A stretch of 64,000 nt of DNA from NCBI GenBank assembly GCA_051294905.1, contig CM119372.1:9488001-9552000 (forward strand), read 5' to 3'. The stretch comes from Botryllus schlosseri (taxonomy: Eukaryota). This document shows, piece by piece, positions 2,261 through 43,089 of this stretch. The notes under the pieces are model-generated. The model saw only the letters and a list, made by a program, of their open reading frames with translations, was not told the DNA's origin and did not search any database. The position numbers were made by a program, and so were the translations under genes. Every line of letters starts with the position of its first letter. The stretch's first letter is position 1.

Positions 2261-5200
2261 ATGGCGGATTCCCAAGGAAATAATAGTACCCGACTCCGGA
2301 GGAATATCTCGAAAATTGCATTCAGAAATAAGGAGCGGGTATGTCTATTTGTAGTCCGCTCTTGTGGACTCTGCATAATGAGCGTCCCTCGTGCGCAGGT
2401 TATGAGAACGATTGGACGTGCTGAAGAGACCAAAGACGAGATAATTGACAACTATGTAATGCTGATCAACAAGCAACAGGTACAGCACTACATAAAATGG
2501 CGTACCGGTACAATTTCAAAACAAATGTTGCGGACCTGTGAACCTTCGAAAATCGAAATTTACTCGAAATGTAATGGCGACAAATGTATACAATTGAAAT
2601 GCAATATTGGAAATTTCATTTAATGCCGCGTTTTTGATATTATATGTACTTTGTTCTATTAAAGTTTCTACGGCAAGCTAGCAAGGTCGGGTTAAATTTC
2701 TCTATTTATTGAATTTTGATGGACCCGGAAAATTTTCTTCCATGCCAGTTACAAGCGTTAGAACCTCATTTGTGATCAGCTCCAGCAGGGTTCACCGATG
2801 CGATTTCTGGAATCCCGTTACTGCTCTGATTTTTAAATGTCGAACATGATAAATGCTACCGTTGGATGTTTACTCAATAGCTCTATTTACTGATCCATGC
2901 CTGTATGACGCTTAATGTTTTTGCAATGTTGTGTCGGCTAAATTATGTTGACCTGGCCAGCATCAATCATTAGCCAACCTCTCACATGCATGTCCTTATA
3001 TTTGATCTGTAGTCGGAATGTGCTTACCGCAGGGTGTTGCAAACACCTGGACATGAAATTGCCGGCTATGCAGTGTATTAAATGCAATCATTCGTGTTTG
3101 TGATAAATCGACGTGTTGGATACACAGAAACAAAATGTAGCTCGTCTGTATGCATTTGGAAAACGAAGCTAGCTTGTGATGAATCATTTACTCGCCCTGA
3201 TAATTCTATGCCAGCGACCAGATTTTTATCTGTGGAAGAGCATGTTGTCAATAATGGTTAATTATCCCCATTTGTATATTTATATTTTTTTACGAATAAA
3301 AATCAGGTTTGTCAGATTATATCAAACTGTCCTACAATTACTGTCCTCCAAATCCATCCAAACTATTTCTCGTCACATTCATCACTAATTGTTCATAATA
3401 ATACAAAATATATGAAAACTAGTAGTAAACTACAGACATGAAATTTTATTGTCATTTTATTTGCTTGCAAAAATTCCATTTTTCGAGTGATTAATGTGGT
3501 TTGGCCTGAAATATACAGCTTTGCTTTATACTTGGGTTTGCAATGGTGCATGTGATGACCTGAATGCCAACTTCCAATGCGAAAACTCATTGATGATTTC
3601 ATGCTTACTGCTGCTATTATATGTGTTCAGTGTGACATCTAGTAAATTTCTAGTAAATTTCAAAGAGTAGGCTAAAAAGGAAATTTCATTGAGTGCAGCA
3701 GGTTAACCCTAAAGGCCTAAACACTTGTCTTTTTTCAGTTGCAAATGCAGAAGTTGCAAAGGGATATGAAGCAATATTTACAAGCAATAAAAGGTTTGAA
3801 TTTCATGCATCGTTTTTCATTGCATTATTTCACTTCAATGTATTTTTTAGCCATGAGCTTGTCAAAGAAAGCCTTTTATAGTTCTTTATATGAAGTTTAC
3901 GATGACGAATGGGATGGTAAGGATGTGGTAGCCTCGTGTTCACAGGTATGCTGAATTACCCTATCTAATATTACATCTTTCAATTTTAACAATGTCGCTT
4001 TTTCAGCGAAACGAATCACTGTACGATGATATTTTTGCAAGATTTCAATCTGAAGTTTTAGAGTTGTTGCAGAACCACTTATCAGAAGTAAGCAAATCTC
4101 ATTTATGACCTGAGGTTATTGGCGACTGACGCTACTATTTTTGTATCCATATTTTTCAGTATCAGAAATGCAAAACCTGTATAGAAAAGAGGGGGCGTAA
4201 ATTGGTGGATTATGATGCAGCCAGACGAGCGGTGCAAGCTATCGAGGCGTCCAGAAAACCCGATCCGACCAAGGTTGATAAGGTATGATTTGCCTGTCTT
4301 GGTGTATTATCGGTCTTGTTCATTTGATTTTGCATAGTTTATAGTAATTGTCACCGTCTGATTAAGGCACCATTCCAACTGCAAGTTTGTGGTTTTAAAA
4401 ATCACAATGCATCTGCCTATGACGGACATATATGCAATAGTAATGGATTTGATATATCATCTCAAATGATATCAATCTTCAGCAGTTAATAATTGTTGTT
4501 CATCGTTGCTTTATGAGCTTTGGGTTTGTTGTGCGCATCTGAAATTGCAAATTTGTTATATTATAGGAACTCGTAGAGTAAAGATTGACAAAATGCATAC
4601 CCAGTATGAAACCGAATGTGAATGCCCTTGTATTCTTTGGTACGCATCACACTATTCTGTTGCTATATATATATACTTGGGATGTATAGTGGCGTGACGC
4701 AATTCCGAACCAATGTTTAACGTCCCAACAGTCGAGAGAACATTTACGGCAAGCGCAAGAAATTTACGAAGAATTGAACAACTTCCTCCATCAACAATTG
4801 CCGACGTTGTACGACTCGCGGCTGTCCGTTTGTGTCAACATTTTCTCGAGTATCTGCGAGAGCGAAAACGTGTTTTCGTCCGATGTCTCGGAGGTAAGAG
4901 GAAATGCTTTGCGGTTACATGTGCCGATAAAACTCAATTTGATCTGTTTCTCTTTTTCAAAGCTGAGAACGAAGCTAAGCAACGTGCTGTCAAATCTTAA
5001 AACGTCGTTTGATAATGGAAACTATCGTATCCAAAGAATGCAGACACCGCTGTGAGTTTAAAATTCTTGAATCTTCCATGGTATTCTTGAATGTACCTTT
5101 TCGCCTGACGTATTCGGTTTGTTTTTCGCTGCACCAGTGTGTATGTTCCTCCAACGGGACCTGCACATAAACAAATCTACAATCCACGTAATTATTGTTG

Positions 5201-8200: not shown

Positions 8201-11200
8201 GTAGAACTCCTCTCATCATAAACGTCGTCACTCTCCTGAGTTTTGTATTTGAGTTTTCAATCACCTTTCGTTTATCGCGAAGCTGTTCGGTTCAATACGT
8301 TGTTACGTTAAACAGAAAAGCATACGTCCAGCGTCCATGTTTGTGGCGTCCAGCGCCAAATTGTCGACGGCTGATGGAGAAGCCGCCAGAGAGAAAGACG
8401 GCGATAAGAAAAAAGAGAAAAGCCAAAAGGACGACAAGCCGCAGAAAGGCCTTTTCGGGATGCTTGGCAAGAGGCTGTCCAGGTCTACGAAGAATCTCAG
8501 TGCGGCGGCGCCGTTGTCAGTCCCGCCGAAAGAGAGTGCCCCGCCGGAAGAGAATCATGAAGTACCCGGCGAAGGGTCCGGCAATGCTGTCCCACCGCAG
8601 ACAGGGACAAGCGAACGACGCGACGATGACCGACAAGTTGTGGAAGATGAGGCAAATGACTACAGCGAAATTGGCGCGTCCGCTGTAGCCGCACGAGAGC
8701 GGATGGGAAACAGCGACCCGACAAAAGCTGCACAAGAGCAGTCGGAAACGGACGACTCGGCAGAAGCCACGGGACATGAGATGCAAAACGGTGACTCATC
8801 GAATGCCGCAAGAGCGGACACTGAAAAAAGTGACTCTGCAAAAGTCGAAAATGATGACTCGGCAAAATTCACAGGAGAGCAAATTGAAAATGATGACTCA
8901 GCAAAATTCACAGGAGAACAGATGGAAAATGATGACATTGCAAAATCCGCACTGGAGAAGAAGGAAAATGGTGACTCGGCAAAAGCGGCGGATGAAAACG
9001 AGGCGATTATGAATTCGACCTCTGTGACGTACGCGACGGTTCAGAAAAAATCGGTGAGCGCCGAAGAGCCGCGTCAAATCGGAGAGACAGTGGAAGACGG
9101 AGTTGCCGATCGCAACCACCAGAGGGAAAAGGCAGAGGACAAAACTGATCCGTCTTTGCAGTTGAACGATTCAAAGTCTGACGAAGAAAATCGCGAGAAT
9201 TTCACGGACCAGTCCCACGATTTCACCGATCAGTCTGGGCAATTTGCGGATGAGTTTTTCCGTGACGACGGTTTCGTCCATTTCGATCACGCCGCCGGAG
9301 CCACCGTCGATGAAAGTACAGCTTTTGGCGAAGCCGCCGGCCCAGTCTCTGCGGGATTCGATGACGGGTTCGGTGATTCCTTTTCTGCCCCGGCGCCTGC
9401 CCAGGTTGACGGATTCTCAAACGAACCGTTTGACGCGGCCGACCCAAGTCCTGACATGGCTCTCGACCTAGACGAAAGTGTTTTCGACCCAGATACCCCG
9501 ATCTCTCCCGGTCATTTCGAGTCGGTTGGCGGTGGCGACTCGGATTTCAAAGCCGATTTCTCACAATTCGACAATGCGCAATTTGAGTCGATTGTGAATA
9601 AGGGAAATGATAACGTTCAAGACGAAGTTTTGCAGCCAGAGAGCGAAAATGCGGATTCAGATCTTGCCAAGAACGACACAATTGCTCTTTCGAATTTGGG
9701 TGGTCCTGAATTGAGTTCGTTTGAGGGTGTGTCTGAAGATGGTGGCGCTGTTTTGAAGTCGGCTTCCGAGGATGAATTCGCTCTGTGCTACGAAGATACA
9801 GCCGGTGTTGGTGTAAAAATGCCAGATGTTAATTGTGACACGCATCGGCCCAGAGATATCGTTACGCATGATGCGGCGGCTGATTTAGATTCTTTGCCGT
9901 CTGATGATGACGCAGAAATGGCAGGAAACGTGGATTCAAATCTTGTAGCAGCTATCGAAAATAGTGTGGTTGTCACAGCCACAAATGCGTGCAAGCTGAA
10001 TTATGCCGGAGATGAAATCGTGAAGGCCGACGGTGATGTATTGGACGATAACCGCGTGCAGAGTGATGCTCGGCCTGCGGTCAGTATTGCGAATCAAGAA
10101 GGCAAACAAGTGTCCACGGCTTCCGAGCCACCAGGAGACGATTTAGATATGGCGGCGCAATCAACCTTTCCGCGTGTGTCTGGGCATTCTGTGGCATCAG
10201 ATGAAGGGCATGATACGTTGGACCCAGTCACTGGCGTAGTCAATACAGATGCGGATGCGAAATCGACCAGTCCTCATGCGCCAGGACATTCTGTGTCGTC
10301 AGACAGTGCGCAGGATTCGCAGGACCAAGTACCGGGCGTGCAGGATTCACCGGGCAGGGGTTCGAGCCCGTCTGAAGTAAGGGACTCACACGGGTGGCGA
10401 TTCTCAGTTGTCGTGTTGCGTGTCTGTAATTTGCTTGCTGTGTCCACGGGTCTCACCGGTAATTTCGGGAGTTTGAAGCAGTTGGTGTTGTTGAAGATTT
10501 TGCAGAAGACCGACGCGCTGTAATTTGCGGTTTCGCAATCACGAGAGAATGATCACAATGTCGAGAGTGCAACAAGACAAGATTTTTGTGGCGTGTTCGA
10601 TTCTGGTTTTTGTACAATTTATATTTTAGAGTGTGGCATTGAAATTGAGCGAGAGACGTGCGAATTCGCGTTTCTACGTTAATATTAATCAAGATTTTGA
10701 TCTACTCAATTTGTTTGATCAAACTGTTATCGTGCGTTCGCGATCGTTTTTGATTTCTCGATCATTTCCTCATCGCCCGATCTTCACGAAGCATGATTTG
10801 ATTTGAATTAGCCTCACGGGCACAAATGCTGAACCCGTCTGGCGAATATTCTCGAAATAACTGACGTTCCTGTATTCAGCTTCCCCTGCCCCATGAAGTT
10901 AATCACGACGCCGCTGGAAGTTCCGAAATATCACCAATCTACGAAGAACCTCCGAGAGACGATTGTGAGCGAATTTCTTTGATAGTCAGTGGTCTTGTGA
11001 TAATCGTTGTTCGCCTCGGTTTGCAGTTCCTGAAGAGCGGCCTTCTGGAAGAATCAACCATCCGCCGTTTCCTCCGAACTACCTCTTTTCTGTGAGTGTT
11101 GTTATGACACTTTTATTTAAGAACGACAGTATTCGTAACCAAGATATCATAGGTGATTTGCCATACCGTCGTTTTCAAATCGAATGGTGATGTCTTATAA

Positions 11201-28400: not shown

Positions 28401-30655
28401 ATAAAGTCGACCCTCGACATACACGATGTGGAGTGACTGGACCGTCGAAATCATCGACGGTTCGACATTTATAGCATGTACAGTGTACACATTGTACATA
28501 TAGATCGTTGACACGGAATGAGTGTTCTGATGATGATGACCGCAAAAATGCTACATAACGATGTAGTCTCGGTTGAAGATATTTTGGTCTGTATATGATA
28601 GTGATGATAGTGGTCGGAAGCCTTTTTCGTTGAAGGAGCCATATTTACCCTGTATTTTCGATTGTCACTGCCACTCCACTGTGATATCACAATTAGGGAT
28701 TTGTGATGTCACATCTAAAAAAAACGATGAAAAAATTATAACATGTTTTAAACACAGTTGTTTTAAATTGATTGTTGTTTTAAATGCAACCCTACCTACA
28801 CGAATTTAGCCGTTTGGTGCTAAGCGTACGCACTATGGATTTTGTCGTAATCTATTCAATTCTTTCCGAATCAAGACATCTCTGGAAGAGAGGAATGTTC
28901 TGATATACAGCTCATGCTGAACCCGGACATTAGAGACGCAGTCGAGGGCGTGCGACTTGTCGCTGAACATTTCAAAGATGAAGAGGAAAGCAACCGGGTA
29001 GGCAGTTACGCACGATATACGACTAAAACTATACCGATTCGTTTGACTATTTTCACTCAAGATGCTTTTATTGCGAGGGAAAATCACTGTACAATGATTG
29101 TGTGGTGTGGAGCAGAGGTGCTAGCTCTCGATGGGATCGTAGATTACATGAATAGGGTCTTGCGGAGTTGTTTTGATTTTGCAGTGAAATCGTTATGTAA
29201 CTTTCTTATTTAACAAATGTTTTTCATTATTAAGTATGCGTGCTTTCGGTAACTTTTAACCAGAGGTGGTCAAAGTAATCAAGAAAGTTACTCAAGTAGA
29301 AGTAGAAGTAGCGACGCAAAAATCTATTCAAGTACGAGTAGAAGTAGTCCTATTAAAAGCATTCTTAAACTACTGGAAATAGAAATAGAATTGAATGACT
29401 TCAAATCTACTCAAGTAATTAAGTAGTTGTGAAAACGATCCTGATTCGTTCGTATATAGACTGTCAGAAGCTGCAAATTGAGATATGCGTAAGATGGAGA
29501 GCTTGATTCATATTGATGCATCCCAGGAAGTATAAACTTTCGACAGCATAGGTATTCGTTCGCATCATGGGATAAAAATGATAGCATTGATATGGGAGTG
29601 CGATACTAATCATCTGTTTACTTGCACACATCGATTTAGAATAAATTATGTTATGGCGCCCCCCCCCCATATTATAAGGCCCGTAGTGTGGTCGAAGAGC
29701 AACACGGAGAAGTGGTGTCGGATACGGTGTTAACACTTTGCGCGATTAGTAAAATGGTAATAAAAAATATGACTGATCGTAAAAATGCAATTTGGTGTAG
29801 CTTTACTGGGAATTGAAAGAGAAATATCTATACTACTTCTAAAAAGCGGAAAATATATTTCATGTATTTTCTCCAGAAAGTTTCAACAGTGGTCTGCTAA
29901 AAACAGATGTGAAGTCAAGAAAAAATCAGAGCCCACTTTTCCAGATATAGGTCACGCCATGGGCTGCTAGATTACGATATGATAGGTATATGCTAGATTG
30001 CGAAATGGTAGTTTCAAACGCTAAGATGGGCCATATTTGCTGTGATGAAATATTTCATATGGGTGACAATGCGGTGTGAACGGAACCACGCAACCCGCTA
30101 CCTAAATTATATTCACCGATACGTTCGTGAAATCATATTAGTCTACTGTGTACGAAGCGCGACGAAAATTATGAGCTTTACTCTACTTTTATGAAAATTA
30201 AACGTTGATACTCCGTGAAAACAGCCCGAAATTCCTCAGGATATCTTTCTGATCGGAGTATTAAACTACTTCTTCTTGACAAACTGAAAATAGCGAAAAG
30301 TCAGTAAGTAGACCACAAAATATTTCGAAGTAGAAGTAGCGGGAAATTAGATGTACTTGAGTAAGTATACAAGTAGTGGAAAACTACCTGAGTACTTCAA
30401 TAAGTAGAAGTACTTCGTTACAGACCACCTCTGCTTTTCACCAATGTATATCTTTAGGAGCAAACCGAATGGAAATACGTCGCGATGGTTATGGATCATT
30501 TTCTTCTCTACATTTTCATCGTTGCCTGTCTACTTGGAACGATTTTCATATTTGCCCAACGACTTGTCGAGCTGAATTCCGAAGAATCGATTTTCAAGAG
30601 TAACGACGGCTCCTGCTTGTTAAATTGCGGCAAAGATAGTAGCACTGCAACTTGA
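19413..30655 (+). CDS. CHRNA1: Nicotinic acetylcholine receptor alpha subunit, muscle alpha1-like (~486 aa, 11 exons)
   Basis: Exons: 19413-19440, 19500-19663, 20322-20476, 20713-20821, 20903-21006, 21551-21660, 21966-22160, 26589-26749, 26890-27004, 28876-28997, 30458-30655. Signal peptide [22 protein letters not shown]; Cys-loop [15 protein letters not shown]; vicinal YDCC marks an alpha subunit; M2 [30 protein letters not shown] and [17 protein letters not shown] are alpha1-like. Confidence 0.93.
23963..25137. mobile_element. ~1.2-kb non-autonomous hAT element, copy 2 (nAChR intron)
   Basis: Same TIR family as 12974-14195; TSD CTATAGAG / CTATAGCG (7/8). Confidence 0.9.
25666..25943 (-). 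mobile_element. tRNA-derived SINE, full length
   Basis: Minus strand shows A box TAGCGCAGTGG, B box GGTTCGAGTCC and an (AAAC)n tail. A 13-bp TSD ATATGTACGGTGT flanks it (25653-25665, 25944-25956). Related partial copies lie at ~27297-27460 and ~43690-43868. Confidence 0.85.
27089..28028. mobile_element. CAGAGG(C/T)GGTC-TIR MITE with AAGTAG subterminal repeats, carrying a nested SINE 3' fragment
   Basis: Ends CAGAGGCGGTC / GACCACCTCTA; TSD CTGTATTC / TTGTATTC; SINE tail fragment at ~27297-27460. Confidence 0.8.
28253..28794. mobile_element. TAGGGTTGCATT-family MITE copy
   Basis: Interior similar to 36604-37055 and, in reverse orientation, 59349-59732; right end AATGCAACCCTA. Confidence 0.7.
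29261..30433. mobile_element. CAGAGGTGGTC-TIR MITE with AAGTAG repeats
   Basis: TIRs CAGAGGTGGTC / GACCACCTCTG; TSD CTTTTAAC / CTTTTCAC. It ends 24 nt upstream of the last nAChR exon. Confidence 0.85.
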
Positions 30656-32638: not shown

Positions 32639-33497
32639 ATGTAAACGCAGAGAGGATCAAAATTACATAGTGATATATGGAAGAACCAATATTATTGACA
32701 TAATTCATTCACAAAATTCAACCACCAGATGCATAAATAAACCGCCTATAGTAAGCCCCCCAGAAGTTGCAATGATTCGATTACCGCTATGGGTGGATAT
32801 ATACCAAAGCGCTAACGGGTAGGAATGGCGCAATGTCTCAAGTGCGTATTTCGAGCTCATTGATATACGGCATATCCCTTACTATATAAGACCTGATAAT
32901 GTACTTTCCGCCTTTTATATTATTTATTTCTCAATTGCAAGTGACATTTATAACACACTGATGTAGAACAGTTGCTTCTTATTGCAGCTGATAGATTTCT
33001 GCAATTGACTATTCACATTGCCACTACTTAATATCAACTGGAACCCATGGAATTTGTATAAAATGAAAAGCATATATATACTGCTGAAACTTTTCTACGG
33101 AATCAAGAATCCACGCAGTACAGCGACTTCAGTGCGGTTGCCAAGAAAAGTATTCATCTCTCCTGTGATCCACTTCAGAAATTGTATCGCAGTCCCGGAA
33201 CGTCTGCGATAAAAGGGAATTTGCCTTGGTATGGTGATGTCGCATGTCGTCCAAATAATTAGACAGTACAGTCTTTATATATTTTCCGGGTCCGCACACT
33301 CAATAGCCGCCGGCTGAATCCGACTCAATTCTGGTTAACAATATAAATCTGCATATGAGCTATCACATTACCGGCACACGCCGACCAAGTGACCCTTTCT
33401 GGTCGTTCGAGTGCGAAATTTGACGTCTTCGGTCGAATGCCGTTAGTTAAGGCTTTAATGGATTCATATGCGCATCCAGACTTTTCCAAAATATTCA

Positions 33498-36400
33498 TTA
33501 TAGTCGGCAATCGTTATTACACTTACGGCAACATCCGTTTGTTGATTGCGCAATCCAAGGCATAAACTTTATGATTGAGGTGAACAGAGCAGGCTGTAAA
33601 GATAGGTAAAGTTAAATAATGAAATGCAACAATCATAACATTACCAGGAATCCAAATGAGATACTGAGTAAATCCGTCATTAAAGGATCATATTACGGAC
33701 TAAACCCATCAACTTATTCACTTAAATCGCATAAGGCTACTGTACGTCGGTGTAAATCAATCGAATAACGTCACACCCTATGTACAGATGTGCAATTGCA
33801 CATGATGCCTGACGTGATCAAGGTTGTCACCGTTTCTACTCGAGTAGAAGTAGATACAACACCGTAAATTTCTACTCAATTACAAGTAGAAGAACAATTT
33901 CCAAAACATGACCAAACTACTGCGATTGGAAGTAGGATATGAAAGGGCTGGAAAGTTTTCAAGTAAGTAGTTTCAAGAAGTCGATTTGGTCAAAGGATCG
34001 CATACCGTTAGCAGTGAATTGAAGGGGGCTACATTTGAAATTGCAAGATGTATCAACGCGACTATAACGCAAAACGACTGATGATACTACAAGTAGGTAG
34101 GTAGAAACTTCGAAAACATATTCGGTTACGATGGCATAAACGCGATGTAAGTTTATCCCAACACTATTCTCTACTTTTCAAAATACAACCTGTAAAAAGT
34201 AAGAAGTTGTACTTGATAAGTGTTCAAGTGGAAATAAAAGTAGCCTAAAACCAAGGCACAACCTACTCGAGCACTCTGAAAAAGTAAGATACCGTATGGT
34301 ACGAAAAGTCTTACCTTGGAACCATCGCACTGATCAGAGCCAGCGAAGTTGATGCCAATCACGGTGAATACATTCAGGACGGCGTCGTAAGCAACCGCCG
34401 GGCTTCCCCCGTCTCCCTGAAACGAACGGCGTCAAAATTCAGTAAATCAATCGGCATCATCAGATAAAAAGCGAGCGCGATAAACAACGCTTACATAACA
34501 CGTATCTGAGGACTCGAAAGACTGAGCGCAGAAGACACCAGACTGCGGCAGGACCATTCCGGGATATATCGTGTTGCAGAACGAGTCCGATTTTACTGTG
34601 AAGGGCAGCTCTTTCAGGCTGGTGAAGTCGGCGACTCCGCTATAGCTGTTTTTGCCGTACCCGGTGAAGTAGAGCACCTTGCCGTCGGCGGGGCTCTCGG
34701 TTGCCAGAGGCGGCAGACAGACTGGGCTGTTCTGAAGAAGAAACGGTGATGTTGATAATTTGTTGATGTTTAAAAACCGATCCATTCACTGGTTATTGAT
34801 ACCGACCGCTGCAGTAAACGTGAGCGATCTGACTCGTAACAGAGCAATATCATTGTACGATTGCAGGGTTGTGTATCCCGGATGAACGATAATCTTTTCC
34901 ACCACTAAAAAGAAAATGACGATTGACTATAATACGCATCAGACCCATCCGGATTACAGTAAATTAGGTACTAAATCTGGACAATTCAACTCGGACGGAG
35001 GTGAATTATGATGACGTACGGGAATTGCAACGCGCGCGCAATGATACTGAATTGGCCACTGGCCTATGTCGAGAAAGTTATACATAATGACTATCTGAAA
35101 ATGTGTACGCCTCTACGCGATGGTTCTATAAACAAACTCACCAGCTTCAGGACCCGGAACCGCAGGATTAAGCGTGCCGACATAAACTTTAATAGTGGCG
35201 GGGTTGATGCTGCAAGAAGGCACAACATATATTCGTTTGATCACGCAACGGTGTATACTCTATTCTAGTCAACTTACTTTGGGACTCGCAAGTAACTATT
35301 TTTTAGGTCGTCTTTCCTTTGTAGGCACGATGCAGTGGTGAGAATCCATTGTCTGAAAAAGCCACGCTTAGATATATTACCCATGTAACCAATTTCGTAT
35401 CATTCATTCCACGGAGCAGTTTAGTAAGTATCCGGAAGCCGTAGTACTACTGGTTCAGCAGAGACTGACATCCCGCGTCTATTCACGACGCTAGAAAATA
35501 TCGGATTTATCTCAATGGTAACACAAAGCAAGGGCAATTTTTCAAATCAACAAAATCAGCCGAGAAAATTCGGAAATCACTGCTATGCGGGATTGCTGAT
35601 GTTTAAACCAGTGTTTAAGCTGACATTTTCAAGCGTGACTGATTGCAATTCTATCAGCAATGTTCAAAGTCATCGACTCATGCTGACTAGGCAACGGTAT
35701 GGTATAGTATCTAGTAGGGATGGTGTGAACCTCCGAAAGGTTCAGGTTCGTGTGAACGCGAACCTTTTCGAAAGGTTCTGTGTGAACACGAACGTGAACT
35801 TCATGACGTCACGTGACGTCATATTGCTAATTCCAACCCTACATTAGCCTATCTATACCATACTATACCTAGCGACGACTTGGGCCACATAATGCCACAA
35901 TCCTGAAGTATAATCAATATCTTCCGTTACTTTGCCAACAATTTCGACGAGGACTTGCAAGGGAATATAAGCTTACGGTATAGGCCAGACCGGACAATGT
36001 ATTCTCAATCTGAGTATTGCTACGTTGATATTGAGCAGAGTGTTAAACCGATACCGATATTATTACATTAACAAGTTAATCAGAAGTAGCCGACACCCCC
36101 ATCGCACAGATTTGGTTTTTATGATACAATAACATATGAAATCAAGATTGACCCCCCGTACGCCTGCTAGATTTTTTTACATCAGACAACGATGGCAATT
36201 TCTTTGATTGGTGCAGTAAGAATTATTCGCTGACTACCTACATGTAGTGTATTTCGCTCTTGATGTTGTGTGAATGCGGGTCAAGCTCACAACGAAATAT
36301 TCACAAACGGAAAGCTGGATATTTCGAGCAAATTTTTGAGATTGGCAAGGTGCATTCCCGTTTGATGTGGATTTTTTAATCCTTCCAGCGCCGTGCATAG

Positions 36401-39400
36401 AGTGGTGCAAAGTAGGAATGCAAAGAATTTCAACCAAAGATGTTATAATGACGCGAAAAAATGGTAATCCATGAAAAAGGTTCACAGTGCAGAACCTACC
36501 AAGGTTCGTTTGTGAACGTGAACCTCTAAATTTCCGAGGTTCACACACAGAACGCGAACGTGAACCTCACGTTCACACCATCCCTAGTATCTAGTATGCT
36601 ACGTAGGGTTGCATTCAAAACAAAAGGTGTTTTAAAACACTTTGTTTAAAACATGTCTTAAACAGTGTTTTAAACAAAGGCCCTTTTAAAAAAATATGTT
36701 TTTTGTAAGCTGTAAAATCATGCCATAATTGTGTAAATACTTTCCAAAAACAGGTTGTGTGAACCTATGGACAATTACCACCCGTTATAGGCGATATCTC
36801 GATATGGGACGGTTGGAACGGGAACCCTCGAAATATAGTTGGTTGAACATTAATAGCACATACATTCCGTCAAAGGAGCTATATTTACCATATATTTTCA
36901 ATTGCCAATGTCAATACACTATGACGTCACAATTGAATATTCGTGACATCATGGCTTAAAAAACAAACAAAAATATAATAGAAACATGTTTTAAATTAGG
37001 GCATTCTTTTAAACATGTTTGTTTTACATTGATTTTTGTGTTAGATGCAACCCTAATGCTACACCATAATTTATGTTACACTCACGAGCATATCTGGACA
37101 CCTCCGCATCTGAATATCTCCGAACCATCAACAATTTGTTTGATAACGGCCATCCACGGTCTACTGGTAGGAGAGTTGACATTGACACCGCCTAAATATA
37201 CATGGTGTTAGTCTTGTATATGTTTGCATGTACCCATGTACTCGCTTTATGAAAAATAAAATGAACCATTCACGTCGGAAAATTATGGGTATTTTCATTT
37301 TTAAGTATGTAACCAATGGATTGGTCTCGTAAAGGAAAGCATTCATTGTCCGCCGGATTACAATGATGCTAGAGGAAATAGTGGCTAGGAATGTTACATA
37401 TAAAACTGAATCCATATCGTAGGTTAATAACCGCTGAATAGTGACAAACTTTTCCTTGTTCTTTTCAATTTTGATGTTCGATTTATTTGACACCACCGTC
37501 CTATTCATTTCAATTATTTGAAGAGCTTCTTGGAGGTACAGAACTTCAATATACAATTGAATAGTATATTCATTGAAGATTTGGGTTCATTTCAATATGA
37601 ATATACTATTCAATCATTTCAATTAATATCGGGCTACGTGAGCAGTGAGCACTGAGCAACTGTCATCTCGAGCATGACTTTCATAGGTATATACATATCA
37701 GCGTGCTTCAATGATCCGTGAGCACATTTATTGAAACGCATCACGAATAGGATCTATCAAATGCAAGCGACAAGGGAAGGTATATATCGCCTATCGGAGA
37801 AAATCTCAAGTTTTACCGACTACTCTTTGCAGATTACTGATGTCCAGACTTTTTCCGCAGGTACCGCTGTCTGTCGTGGGAAGACAGCCCGTCGGAAAAG
37901 AAACACCTGAAACACAAAGAGTTACCAGCATACCGGCGTTTTTCATCCATGTACCTTGTACACGTATATATAGGCTACTAATATACCTTTCTTGTGACAA
38001 ACTCCACCCAGTTGACTCCCCGCGTCCTGAGCCCAGCAGCAGCCCTTGGTTTCGCAAGTCGATTTCAGGTGACCCAACGCGGCTGGGCTCAACTTCGGTA
38101 TTTTGATGCCGGTCGTACCGCCAGTAAGCAACGCACTTAAAAGAGCAGGATTGGTTCCGCCGATGGAAGATGAAGACCCCCCGAGAAGACCAGAGGTTCC
38201 GCCGAGAAGACCAGAGCTGCCACCAGACAACAAACTCAACAGAGTAGACGTGTCGAGCTGTCGCGTTGCCGAGGCGGAACCGGATCTCGCCAAAAGCGAG
38301 AGAAGCGGATTGCTGGCAGCTGAGCCGAGACCGCCGAGAAGACCGGGGTTGGATTGAAGCAGCGCGCTCATCAGGGGGTTGCTTCCGAAAAGTGAAGCTA
38401 GAGGGTTCGGGGCTGGTGTCGTAGCAATTGTGCTCTGTTTCCCTCTAAGGTCGAGGGCGACAACCGACAGTTGAAATGACTTGAATCCATCGCATTCCTC
38501 TTGATCGTCTACAGCGCAAGTATCTGAAAAAGATGTTAAGTTATAAACCCCTACCCGAGGATCAACACGATAAACCTACCAGCGCTATCTTGAAGCCGGT
38601 ATGCCGATGCAGGTACTAGAGTGCATCTAAAACAGCGGGAGCCGTACGTGTCGCGAAAGAAAAGGCAACCCTGCCGTAAAATGGTATTTTTACCACGTTC
38701 TGTTGTGCCTTGTGAAAAGGGTCAGTCAATGTACGTACCACATTGAAACATTCTGATTCGGTGTTGATGTTTGTGTTATACCCAGATCTGCATGAATCGT
38801 AGGTGTATCGCTGCGAGATGCATTTGGCAAGTATATCAGACGGAATGAGATCTGAAACGCAATAGGGAGATCAGCCACACGCCCGCGACTGCTCGTTACA
38901 CTATATATTGCACTGGTCTACACGATTTTGCGCCAGGATTTCTTTGGATCATTTTTACCTAATTTGTGGGCGCTGAATCGGAATCTGGCGCTATTTTTGT
39001 TCCATCACATCACGTTTTTGAGACAATATATCAATCGATTATATAGACTGACCAGTGACCATGATTCAAATAACAAAGATAATTGTTAAAACCTCAATTT
39101 CAGCTAATTTAAATGTGTCCATTATTATACGTGATTGATCTTTATCCATCAGTCAAATTTATGGAGTATGTGTATAACTTATGCAGTATATGGACTATAC
39201 GACCACTTTTCACACTGCAGCAGCGTATTCGATCGTTAATTGTTTTGCGGTGCATGTGCTTTAGCCATTTTCCCCATTATTATGTACTCTATTACTCACT
39301 TGGATTTATTGACCCCTGCTTAAAAGCGGTGACTGCAGGTGCGTCCGCCGTGATACCAAACAAACTGATAATGCCTGTCAAACAGCAGACCATTAATGGA

Positions 39401-41172
39401 TTCGAAAGAGAACGAATGAAATACACACTAGCTTACTTGGAATCGATCCGAGGCCTGGGGGAGAGTTGCCAGATGCGAGATCGATCAGTGCATTACCAGT
39501 GGCACCGCAATTGTAACGCAGCTTCATGATAGCTGCAACTTCGGAGGTCAAGCTCTTCAGCAGCAGACATGCTCTTGCGTTAGTGGGCGGGGGTCTGTAG
39601 CTCTGTACGCCGTAAGCTGGAAAACGACCACCGAGAGATGAACGCCAATTTGTATTTTGCGCTACATTTTAGACGCACGTACTCGGTAGTCGACTTCCCA
39701 CTGCGCTTGCGGCCGGTAATACAGGAAACGTCAGTTCGGGTGATACCTTAGGCGCGGCAGTTGGGGCGGGGGTGTTGCCCGCCGCCGGTGCAGCTGCCCC
39801 GCCTCCGGTGCTCTAAAGATTATTCCGTTTGATTAGGAAATCGCAGTCTTGCTAAATACAGACCTGCTTTAACCGAACACGAACACGTATTGAGTAACAT
39901 TCGATACTTACTCCAAGAATGCCTTGCACCAGCCTGTTGGCTTCCTCGGCTTCGATAGGTGGTTCATTTCCGGTACAACCGAGAAGTTTTTGTAACTCTG
40001 CTCTTGCCTAGGAAACAACAACAACAACGCATACACTAAAGGGGTTCTGTGCTCTAAATATGATGTGGTCTCATATTTAAGTAGAAGGAATGAAAAGCAT
40101 TTTGGCACAGCCATATTCTTTGAAAGCCATCGTATATGATATCGAGGTGACGTGTCATCGATTCGTAACCACACAAAGGTATTAAGTAGATTCACAATGT
40201 GTTAAGTAGCGATGACGAGTGACCTCGATGCAGGGTTGTAATGACTCGAGTCATTTTCTTAAAAATGAAAAATGACTCGACTCGAGTCAATTTGGGTATC
40301 GACTCGACTTGTAATCGAGTCATTGCACATGACTCGGACTAAGTCATATGACTCGAGACTGGGCCTACCAAGACAGTCATTTCATTGTAATTCCGAAGAA
40401 TAGTAATGCTATCCCACTATATTATCATTTCGTCTAGCCTACACTTGAAAATGCTACCAGAAACTGGTAAAGTGAGGAAATCACTATATTATAAATGCGA
40501 AGCATTCGATATCATCGAGCAGAGTTGTAAAAAGTGGGTTTCACATGACATTACCTCGGAACTGGACGGTCAACACAATGACTTGGACTCGGAGTCGAGT
40601 CAAAACACTATGACTCGGACTCTACACTCTACACCGTGACTTGCATTACACCGGACTTGACTTGGTGGTGAATTGAATATGACTCGGGTCAAAACTAGAA
40701 AGATTGCACGAGATTGAGATTGAGAGATTGCCTTGTGACTCGGAACCTTGTGACTTGGTTACAACCTTGCCTCGATGTCACAGAGATCGATTGACTGGAA
40801 TGGTACCTTTCTCAAAAATCGTCTGCTGCAGTTCGAATGACGGGGCTTGCTTAGGAGGATGGCTGCTTCCAAAATGTTTTTCACACTTTGATTTGAGACC
40901 ACATCACTGTAAGCGTAATGACGTATGAACCGGCCACGGTAGGCCTATCACTAGGCTTACCATACGTCTCGCTTTAGGCGGGACACTCCCGCTTTTTAAC
41001 GTATTGTCCCGGCGTCCCGCCCAGTCAGCAAAGCGTCCCGCTTTTTAAGGCCGTAAGAAATTTAGGTTTAGAGCAAATTGCGAGTGATAAGCCGTAAATT
41101 AGCACAGAAGTGACGCTCCGGCGGGTATTTCGGAGTGAAAAACGGTGATTTCAGCTCTGAGCGAAAAGATGA

Positions 41173-41203
<31 letters not shown>

Positions 41204-43089
41204 GTCAACCGATCACAAAGTGGGATAAATTCACCGGTTTTTGAGAATTTTTCTCCGGTTTTGCAAGCCTCAGATTTCGGAAAAAGTGTCCCCCTTTTAG
41301 ATTTCCAGAATATGGTAAGCCTACCTATCACTGTAGATAGGCATCTGACCTAGCACTGATGGCATAGTTTCATCGACCGATTTGATGCTGGAGTGATGCT
41401 CAGGATATAGCGATATTGTGTGATTGCGATTACTTTGCAATGCCGCACTAATTACAATGGCAGCAAATTTTGATTGCAAGGTAGCCTATTGAATACCGCT
41501 TCATTCGTAATGCCGTTTGCCAGACTGCATTGGTTGATGCCGCTCAATGGATCGGTGCTTTGCTTCACTATGGAAGCTGCCACGTTCGTACCTAGCGCTC
41601 CTTGCTGTCCTGCCGAGATATTCATAGTTAAGTAACCAGTAAAAATCACTATTCTCATGTGTCATGTTCCAATCAACTGACCTTGAATTCCTTGTACAGG
41701 TACAGGTGTCCTATTCGGTAATCCTAGAGAAGCGAAAAGATTTTTCATGTTGGTGCTGACGGAAGACGTCGGCGGTTGCGTGGATTTCTGGGGCTGATGT
41801 TGGTTCTGGTAGGTCTGTCCCTGTTGGCTTGGCCGTCTTCGTGAATACACATAATTTCCTTGTTGGGTATGTGAATATTGGTTTTGCGTATGAGTTGGGG
41901 TCTGATAGTGACTTGATGGCTGATGAGGGTATCGGTATTTCTGCTGAGATGGATATACATAACGCTGCTGGTTGTGCTGCTGACCCATCTGCTGTTGATT
42001 TGGAGCTTGGTATGGTTGTTGATAATGTGGTTGGGGCGGCTGTATCGGCTGAGCGAAACTCTCGGAAGGAATTGCGCTATCTGCAAATCATAGGTTACAT
42101 TTGGTATTGTTTTATGACGTAATATCACCCGGTCACTTAATTGAAAACATTATACCATAAACATTGCGCTGGTTTACATTCATCCACGAGTTAGTAAATG
42201 CCAATATTTCCCTATACTTACAATTCAGTATGATTCGATCTGAAATATCAGGGATGTCTAAATACGCCAGGAATTCGAGACAATCTGTCATGTGTTACTA
42301 TAATAAGTTCACATTTATCAGATAGGTTTGTAACAATGGAATGGACTACGTCACAGTCTTTATACACCAGAGAAAATGGAAACAACTCCATACGTACTAT
42401 GATCTTGCCAACTTTCCGATGATCCCGTCACATGAGCTGAAAACAAAGATCGCTGTTCAACTGATACGCGGCAGCTCATTCCGCAGCTGAGGGGACATCG
42501 AACTAAACTTACTTTTTCCGTAGCATCTCGGTATCGACGAATTCCAACAGCACTTCTTCACCTGCTCACAAAATGCCTGCGCATTCTTGTGAATTGACGG
42601 AACACCGTTGTTGTAAAGATAATTGTTTATGTCGTCCTGGTCGAAGCAGCCGTGTTCAACGTACGCATTAGTGAGGCAGATCCCTGCACCTGTAACGGAG
42701 GATATTATTGTAGTATGAACCGCACTTATGAAATCCGACTGCATTTCGTATATCGCGATGGGTGGAAAATGGCGTTTTAGCATATCCCAGCTCACGACCT
42801 ACCAATATTCAAAGTTCCCACCGATTTCGCCATGTTTTCACCTCAGAGAACAATATCTTTCCGAAGTTCATTAGGATTTAGACCAATTACACAGCACATG
42901 ATATATGAAATCCCACTATCAGTTCACGAGCATTCAATGCCATGAAAAGCTAGGCCCGATACCGAATTTAGGTGGTCCCCGACATCAATATCAACGATGA
43001 TGTAAAACCGAGCGATTATTGAATTCACCTGATACATAAACCTCCATCCACATCGAAACACAGATTGCTGCAAGTAGTATTCGAGCCAT
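33498..43089 (-). CDS. Secreted mosaic protein: trefoil(P)-like Cys modules + Q/Y/H-rich and G/S/L-rich low-complexity regions + non-catalytic trypsin-like (S1) domain, ~990 aa, >=20 exons
   Basis: Phase-consistent minus-strand exons: 43089-43029 (signal peptide MARILLAAICVSMWMEVYVSG), 42689-42513, 42080-41682, 41609-41456, 40906-40807, 40007-39912, 39812-39683, 39616-39437, 39374-39300, 38851-38739, 38670-38580, 38523-37987, 37906-37817, 37191-37086, 35352-35278, 35209-35142, 34904-34807, 34731-34495, 34416-34315, 33593-33527. The protease domain reads CGK..QR/VVGG, RPWMAVI, CGG, WILTTASC, NDIALL, PVCLP, DTCYGDGGSP, FMPWI. The 3' end is uncertain: a GTAAGT donor at 33526 or read-through to TAA at 33498. 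Confidence 0.85.
35715..36586. mobile_element. TAGGGATGGTGTGAAC-TIR non-autonomous hAT-like element
   Basis: TIRs TAGGGATGGTGTGAAC / GTTCACACCATCCCTA; perfect TSD GTATCTAG; GTGAAC/GTTCAC subterminal repeats. Confidence 0.9.
36604..37055. mobile_element. TAGGGTTGCAT-TIR MITE
   Basis: TIRs TAGGGTTGCAT / ATGCAACCCTA; TSD ATGCTACG / ATGCTACA. Confidence 0.85.
40231..40769. mobile_element. GACTCGAGTC-rich hAT-like MITE
   Basis: TIRs CAGGGTTGTAA / TTACAACCTTG; perfect TSD CCTCGATG. Confidence 0.9.
40952..41323. mobile_element. TAGGCTTACCATA-TIR MITE, copy 2
   Basis: TIRs TAGGCTTACCATA / TATGGTAAGCCTA; perfect TSD CCTATCAC; internal poly-T. Confidence 0.9.

Follow-up and report, generated by a model that had tools for sequence, protein, structure and literature searches.

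Trefoil factors bind GlcNAc-alpha-1,4-Gal through an Asn or Asp together with a Trp, and mutants lose both binding and cross-linking (accessible part of PMC7221086). Insect non-catalytic protease homologues oligomerize upon cleavage and assist phenoloxidase activation (accessible part of PMC10540698). In Ciona, the 80.8 kDa protein Epi-1 carries a signal peptide and trefoils, is required for a non-sticky larval tunic, and was reported to be cytosolic (10.1101/2024.09.30.615758). For the Oikopleura house, a figure legend gives a trypsin-like domain, and no trefoil, among the oikosin domains (accessible part of PMC3390340). Tunic formation has been called poorly studied, and unidentified genes have been posited (PMC10986139). 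Here we describe a gene within a stretch of 64,000 nucleotides of Botryllus schlosseri (contig CM119372.1, positions 9,488,001 to 9,552,000; hereafter the window, whose numbering is used for all coordinates). We found that the region from 43089 to 33175 on the minus strand is one real spliced gene with one transcript and one chain, in which trefoil-type modules and long low-complexity tracts precede a trypsin-family domain that, judged by its residues, is non-catalytic.

The final model comprised 21 coding exons with an open frame of 960 aa, and was built from six-frame translations, then from the homologue P0001, and then from spliced contigs of public runs. A preliminary description of this DNA had left its exon junctions to be confirmed; thirteen of the 20 introns were seen directly in the contigs as GT-AG joints with the modelled lengths, and the remaining seven, absent among the joints listed (104 more exist beside these), agree with the offsets that separate the contig pieces (339, 279, and 39 nt). 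Record 5 of run X14 (2626 nt) covered exon 4 to the 3' end, exons 2-4 were joined in record 3 of run X1, and the joint between exons 1 and 2 was present in X14; the whole gene was not covered by any one contig. The record of runs X1 and X14 does not list RNA, and their contigs were without introns. Two separate genes were ruled out, as the single transcript proposed earlier requires, in that exon 4 was shared by the 5' and 3' contigs and in that trefoil 1 and the protease-like domain stood on one chain in four relatives. The 3' end departed from the preliminary description, which had 20 exons and a stop at 33498. Exon 20 (33527..33593) was spliced at 33527 to a further exon 21 (32978..33203), which lies outside the region described before and carries the last 9 codons, the stop codon (33177-33175), and a 3' UTR reaching at least 32978 (X1 record 1). 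Contigs of X1 and X14 contained the joint 33203/33527, as did 2 raw X19 reads, and the new C-terminus resembled that of P0001; the stop at 33498 is intron read-through. Our first gene model, which had one more exon (40906-40807), a longer form of exon 5, and the stop at 33498, was ruled out by P0001 and the contig offsets.

Among the 40 variants listed of 323, 29 were coding, and 21 of these were synonymous against 24% expected (p 6e-8), an excess that indicates selection on the reading frame. One genomic match each was obtained for exons 2, 4, and 18 (the counts being lower bounds), and no close paralogue was found in the 64-kb window. In X19, 2 and 4 reads crossed the final two joints. Around 41926-43089, the depth of the X14 contigs showed a step. 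It ranged over 259-997 for exons 1-3 and over 410-640 toward the 5' side of exon 4, whereas it was 54 from 41956 onward to the 3' end; the branch lacked a splice donor. Candidate explanations of this step are a short isoform consisting of trefoil 1 and the Q-rich tract, a 5' bias, or an allele bubble.

Relatives were obtained from word-limited searches or as the best 150 of 22,259 matches. The family consisted of the uncharacterized Styela clava protein LOC120342169, a Phallusia mammillata fragment, and the proteins P0001, P0155, P0159, and P0164-P0166 with their cluster members. Among the matches listed, the named members were all ascidian and none was a Ciona protein. The model was aligned with nine proteins, and residues were counted in the window protein and six relatives (Styela, P0001, P0155, P0159, P0165, and P0166), with the near-duplicates P0167, P0169, and P0172, the shortened P0164, and fragments omitted. 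These seven proteins are not independent, because P0159 and P0165, as well as P0155 and P0166, are related pairs. All 26 Cys from Cys355 onward were invariant except for Cys678.

The domain at the C-terminus was assigned to the trypsin family with the help of P0001, which is 79% identical to the window protein in this domain and matched Pfam Trypsin at E 1.7e-35; single exons of the window matched at E 0.002-0.035. The model of P0001 had a chymotrypsin-type fold, with Foldseek E values of about 1e-15 to S1 proteases. The domain begins in exon 14 (37086..37191), directly downstream of exon 13 (37817..37906), which encodes a pre-protease linker (Cys678, Cys687) and the Arg698-Val699 activation site (37826-37821). 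The position of the catalytic His57 is Ser744 in exon 15 (35278..35352; codon 35330-35328). Exon 16 (35142..35209) was placed by the P0001 alignment and contigs, and exon 17 (34807..34904) retains Asp102 as Asp802 (34851-34849). Exon 18 (34495..34731) carries Asp189, and exon 19 (34315..34416) retains Asp194 and has Gly898 at the position of Ser195 (34410-34408), so that the triad is not that of an active S1A protease. Exon 20 contributes Ala at position 226 and the C-terminal Cys-Cys. Thus the trypsin-like domain without catalytic His and Ser and with an intact activation site, as reported from the first reading of the sequence, was confirmed.

The same pattern was present across the family. 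His57 was lost in 7/7 proteins, replaced by Ser or Ala, and Ser195 was lost in 6/7, replaced by Gly, with Styela retaining Ser; Asp102 was lost in 2/7 (Asn). Position 226 was not Gly in any of the seven (Ala, Ser, Val, or Leu), which from established S1 biology should narrow the S1 pocket. By comparison, the residue before the cleavage site (P1) was basic (Arg or Lys) in 7/7, Ile or Val occupied position 16 in 6/7, and Gly193, Asp194, and Asp189 were kept in all seven. The domain was also among the best-conserved parts of the protein, with 98-116 of about 245 positions identical in five distant relatives versus 2-31 in the Q-rich tract. Since the activation machinery was kept and catalysis lost, cleavage may still switch the domain.

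The placement of the domain was taken from a quick maximum-likelihood tree that contained 69 domains, comprising eight of the family, the one of protein P0149, and 60 picked by score from 144 other length-filtered domains; the tree was midpoint-rooted, and long branches may attract. The family formed one side of a branch with SH-aLRT 99 and joined P0149 with SH-aLRT 96. P0149 has three trefoils and an S1 domain with an intact triad, and the grouping was supported by an extra Cys pattern common to both. Its counterpart in this genome lies on contig C11 (G000:C11:20050524-20066212; L036, L037), has His, Asp, and Ser present, and is 44-81% identical to P0149 by exon. The C11 three-trefoil protease is likely the sister of the non-catalytic family. 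Another trefoil-protease gene possibly lies at G000:C2:18452000-18462000 (L038), where His/Ser protease exons have just upstream of them, on the same strand, a canonical trefoil in which both residues for glycan binding are present.

Three modules with trefoil spacing were examined using a profile built on 18 canonical trefoils, which came from the 20 best loci of the genome, with scores compared to 100 shuffles. Pfam Trefoil on the window alone gave E values of 0.53 and 0.0073, under the cut-off. Module 1 (aa 25-76, six Cys), encoded by exon 2 (42513..42689), scored 13.3 bits with 0/100 shuffles as good, and its counterparts in relatives scored 14.5-36.3 bits, with that of P0159 exceeding the Pfam trefoil cut-off. 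Its six Cys were retained in 4/4 relatives having the module; P0001 and P0155 begin later. A PDB sequence search with exon 2 returned 0 matches at E 10. In P0164 and P0167, module 1 was missing directly after the leader, which suggests exon skipping or loss. Module 2 (aa 434-477) is encoded by exon 10 (38739..38851) and exon 11 (38580..38670), the latter without the fifth trefoil Cys and with an extra Cys477. It was trefoil-spaced, lacked the fifth Cys in 7/7 proteins, scored 0.3-6.8 bits, and had an extra invariant Cys three residues past the sixth. The model of module 2 had a predicted local confidence (pLDDT) of 46, and its best VIA-align Z of 3.8 came from helical matches only and was uninformative on the fold.

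Module 3, encoded by exon 12 (37987..38523), was split: Cys494 and Cys502 were followed by a loop of 145 residues (38491-38057) and then by the last four Cys (Cys648-Cys667). The second half scored 15.4-25.1 bits in 7/7 proteins. The first half beat the shuffles in 5/7, the exceptions being the window protein and P0001, and in the same five the joined halves outscored the second half alone. In all seven proteins the loop between Cys2 and Cys3 was 126-229 aa long, with 44-58% Gly, Ser, and Leu and 5-13% charged residues. The pLDDT of this region was 34-67 in the homologue model. Trefoil disulfides are formed between Cys 1-5, 2-4, and 3-6, and with these standard bonds the loop would be closed by disulfides. 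Two Arg-containing motifs in the loop aligned family-wide and are possible further cleavage sites. P0159 and P0166 had tandem Gly/Ser/Leu repeats elsewhere in the chain. Of the earlier trefoil calls, those for modules 1 and 3 are thus supported as trefoil-type through the homologues, with the window alone under the Pfam cut-off, and module 2 was weak and is only trefoil-spaced. Pfam Trefoil had at least 72 matches in this genome on many contigs, the domain being much expanded.

The remaining exons encode the leader and the tracts between the modules. Exon 1 (43029..43089) carries the start codon and a signal peptide (aa 1-20) predicted by hydropathy, and was placed by the X14 joint 42686/43026. 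The leader (aa 1-21) contained the most hydrophobic 19-mer of the protein (1.75), and no other membrane-like stretch stood out; the protein is likely secreted. Exon 3 (42398..42436) is a linker of 39 nt, supported by the joint 42436/42513, by loose ends, and by X1 record 3. Exon 4 (41682..42080; Q31 P18 Y11 H7 in the 133 residues of aa 93-225) contains a Q/Y/H/P-rich tract at aa 98-200 and the start of a short conserved motif block at aa 204-240. The rest of this motif and the first Cys of a helical two-Cys module, H1 (aa 253-274), are in exon 5 (41497..41609; from the P0001 alignment and contig offset), and the remainder of H1 (aa 264-295, predicted helical) is in exon 6 (39912..40007). An Ala/Pro/Gly linker in exon 7 (39683..39812) is flanked by H1 and by a second such module, H2 (aa 355-375; Cys355, Cys375), in exon 8 (39437..39616). 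H1 and H2 being copies of one module was rejected, with an hhalign probability of 0.5% and a poor H1 alignment. Exon 9 (39300..39374) was placed by the P0001 alignment and contig offset; modules 2 and 3, the linker with Cys678 and Cys687, Arg698, and the S1 domain ending in Cys-Cys follow in this order. The mature chain of 99 kDa thus ends in the S1 domain. In the homologue model of 768 aa, 409 residues, about half, had pLDDT below 50, consistent with long flexible tracts, and an ESM Atlas query with P0001 115-290 gave no usable match. A homodimer check of the C-terminal 324 aa of P0001 scored 0.00 and gave no verdict. The parts listed in the preliminary description (leader, six-Cys module, Q/Y/H/P tract, further Cys modules with linkers, split trefoil, and inactive protease domain) were accordingly all present on the minus strand. 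A glue chemistry resting on the Q/Y/H/P tract was not supported: the Q-rich tract was common to the window protein and Styela only, and in 3/4 relatives reaching the N-terminus (P0159, P0165, and P0166) Thr/Pro-rich sequence took its place.

We tentatively favor, at somewhat less than an even chance, that the protein is a catalytically dead single-chain mosaic acting as a cleavage-switched matrix scaffold within an extracellular layer of tunicates, either tunic or mucus; we infer its secretion, cleavage, partner, and place. A trypsin-like protease would cut after Arg698, the candidate being the C11 sister trefoil-protease with its intact triad, and the two chains would remain linked by Cys687-Cys821. 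The new N-terminus would pair with Asp194 and turn the protease-like domain into an ordered surface for protein binding. Weak multivalent contacts and spacing may come from the disulfide-closed Gly/Ser/Leu loop and other flexible tracts, and the trefoils would serve as structural staples rather than as mucin-glycan lectins. A bolder version, which we regard as a long shot, is that of a tunicate-wide matrix protein whose split trefoil completes its disulfides with a neighboring molecule instead of within itself to form covalent chains, with cleavage by the sister protease switching the dead domain as a second cross-linker. If true, polymerization by split trefoils would be a new way for a chordate to build its extracellular matrix, be it tunic cuticle or a feeding net, and the enzyme and pseudoenzyme would be a pair derived from one gene.

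Several observations weigh against a matrix scaffold. Exonic reads were nearly nil in the bulk RNA runs X19 and X23 (with about 6% and 13% of these runs read). The composition of the low-complexity tracts varied among relatives, and P0165 had lost the canonical residues directly past the cleavage site. The mature chain contained 34 Cys, all of which could pair within the chain as judged from their spacing, leaving no obvious free Cys for mucin-like polymers. In the ESM Atlas, look-alikes of the Styela protein were haptoglobin-like and clip-type protease homologues; these are leads only, by which a soluble binding or cofactor role fits equally. A homodimer check of the C-terminal 324 aa of P0001 scored 0.00 and gave no verdict.

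The main rival, rather unlikely in our judgment, is that a protease cascade outside the cell employs the protein as a non-catalytic cofactor or decoy, which would oligomerize once cleaved as the insect homologues do (accessible part of PMC10540698), and would either present a substrate, such as prophenoloxidase in tunic tanning, wound repair, or immunity, or regulate the active sister protease. The logic of the two is the same, Cys-knotted N-terminal domains being joined to an inactive protease domain with Gly at Ser195, a replacement known from clip homologues. Active trefoil-proteases are present in the same genome (the C11 gene, and the C2 trefoil adjoining His/Ser protease exons), and an Atlas cluster of phenoloxidase-activating factor 2 was found at 0.88 as a lead only. 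However, the family grouped with none of the 60 other protease domains in the quick tree, including those with Gly at 195. There is no clip domain, and some 500 residues of flexible tracts would be left unexplained. The retained activation residues and lost triad would also suit a ligand of the HGF/MSP type. In HGF, cleavage switches on a receptor-binding pseudo-protease chain. Pfam scans found no kringle or PAN domains, however, and ligands of this type do not usually contain long, repetitive tracts of Gly/Ser/Leu, which makes this reading very improbable.

The two further rivals concern the trefoils. A lectin of the vertebrate trefoil-factor type, cross-linking mucin glycans, would gain multivalency from two or three trefoil-type modules per chain, and its activity may exist in the animal, given that both binding residues were present in 5/18 canonical trefoils of this genome. 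In TFF1 these residues directly precede Cys2 (Asn/Asp) and Cys6 (Trp) (numbering checked), and in the window protein the two positions are Gly/Arg, Ser/Arg, and Glu/Val in its three modules. The needed pair (accessible part of PMC7221086) was never present together in any module of the seven aligned proteins. Because both residues were absent, the glycan cross-linking put forward in the preliminary description was unsupported, and we give the lectin very little probability. A last reading, distinctly unlikely, is that the protein is an Epi-1-like epidermal factor that remains inside the cell or the secretory pathway and helps cuticle proteins mature, or else an egg-coat or gonoduct protein. 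Epi-1, reported as cytosolic, also combines a signal peptide with trefoils, its knockout site was a trefoil on exon 12, trefoil 3 of the window gene likewise being on its exon 12, and its 80.8 kDa is near the size of the window protein minus the protease domain; expression restricted to a stage would agree with the few reads of the two bulk runs. Yet the C-terminal peptide of Epi-1 is unlike that of the family, Epi-1 was described without a protein-modifying domain, no Ciona protein was among the matches listed, and the possibility of 17 disulfides speaks for the secretory pathway.

The scaffold reading would bear on the protein partners of cellulose in building the tunic and feeding mucus, few of which are known, and to which this conserved single-copy family adds a candidate. 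Its testable features are the loop-split trefoil in every member found, an inactive protease domain with an activation switch, and an intact sister as candidate activator; because ascidians are routinely used for knockouts, the question lends itself to a direct test. No characterized full-length match was found, in line with the preliminary description, in which the architecture was not recognized, and the literature searched (mostly outside subscription journals, with the supplements of one paper) contained no description of the family or of a split trefoil with an inactive protease. The Styela accession XP_039266817 was not mentioned in that literature, including the accessible part of a Styela thyroglobulin-like paper and its 6 supplements (PMC12992692), and nothing relevant was found in the accessible parts of tunic proteomics (PMC7401272), PMC11788884, or PMC3036616. 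The parts are of known kinds; what appears undescribed is their being combined and a trefoil split throughout the family.

The neighboring genes were unrelated, and calling the locus a system was an overstatement. A BAR-domain exon at 4690-5055 (plus strand; E 3.7e-5), followed by an acidic low-complexity open frame of 756 aa at 8253-10523 (plus strand), probably represents an amphiphysin-like gene. A weak match to a neurotransmitter-gated ion-channel membrane region at 28851-29213 (plus strand; E 0.07) probably marks an exon of a nicotinic-type receptor gene, the end of which lies downstream of the gene described here. Introns 5, 13, and 14 (35536-37737 and 39940-41407) contained high-copy repeats with contig depths in the thousands, and sequence near 35720-35810 and 36490-36590 resembled an inverted pair.

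Compared with the described systems, the window protein shares with vertebrate TFF1-3 the six-Cys spacing of modules 1 and 3; those are small dimers with glycan-binding Asn/Asp and Trp, whereas it is a large mosaic chain without these residues. Arthropod clip-type homologues (cSPH/PPAF-II) likewise place an inactive S1 domain behind Cys-knotted domains and need cleavage, with reported sites at residues 77-133, near the N-terminus (accessible part of PMC10540698). Unlike the family, they carry clip rather than trefoil domains and did not group with it in the tree, and no CLIP match was found in P0001, P0154, P0155, or P0159 at E up to 1-5. Ciona Epi-1 is similarly tunicate-specific, with a signal peptide, P-type trefoils, and a tunic phenotype. 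It differs in its size of 80.8 kDa, its C-terminus, its reported cytosolic location, and in that no protease-like domain was described, in a comparison based on its published description and C-terminal peptide. Identity with Epi-1 was not supported by this peptide, and because of this peptide and the undescribed protease-like domain the gene was not filed as Epi-1. P0149 and the C11 protease share the extra Cys pattern, the C-terminal Cys-Cys, and the union of trefoils with S1, but have an intact triad, trefoils without the long splitting loop, and no H2 or module 2 match.

Closer still is the Phallusia mammillata protein labelled mucin-5AC (CAB3264079.1; P0133), which fell within the family in the tree. 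It is a fragment of 145 aa only, which is 45% identical to the C-terminal 140 aa and has both Gly at 195 and the C-terminal Cys-Cys. Gel-forming mucins such as MUC5AC are marked by VWD, C8, and TIL domains, long Pro/Thr/Ser repeats, and a cystine knot. None of these features appeared in Pfam scans of the window, P0001, or the relatives, and since Pfam finds Trypsin in the Phallusia protein its name is unbacked; our finding corrects this database label. The Styela clava protein (LOC120342169, XP_039266817; P0006/P0154) has an extra Sushi domain in its Q-rich tract, a retained Ser195, and a longer loop (229 aa). It otherwise shares the signal peptide, trefoil 1, the Q/P/Y tract, H1, H2, module 2, the split trefoil 3, the protease domain lacking His57, and the C-terminal Cys-Cys, with 45% identity over aa 644-957.

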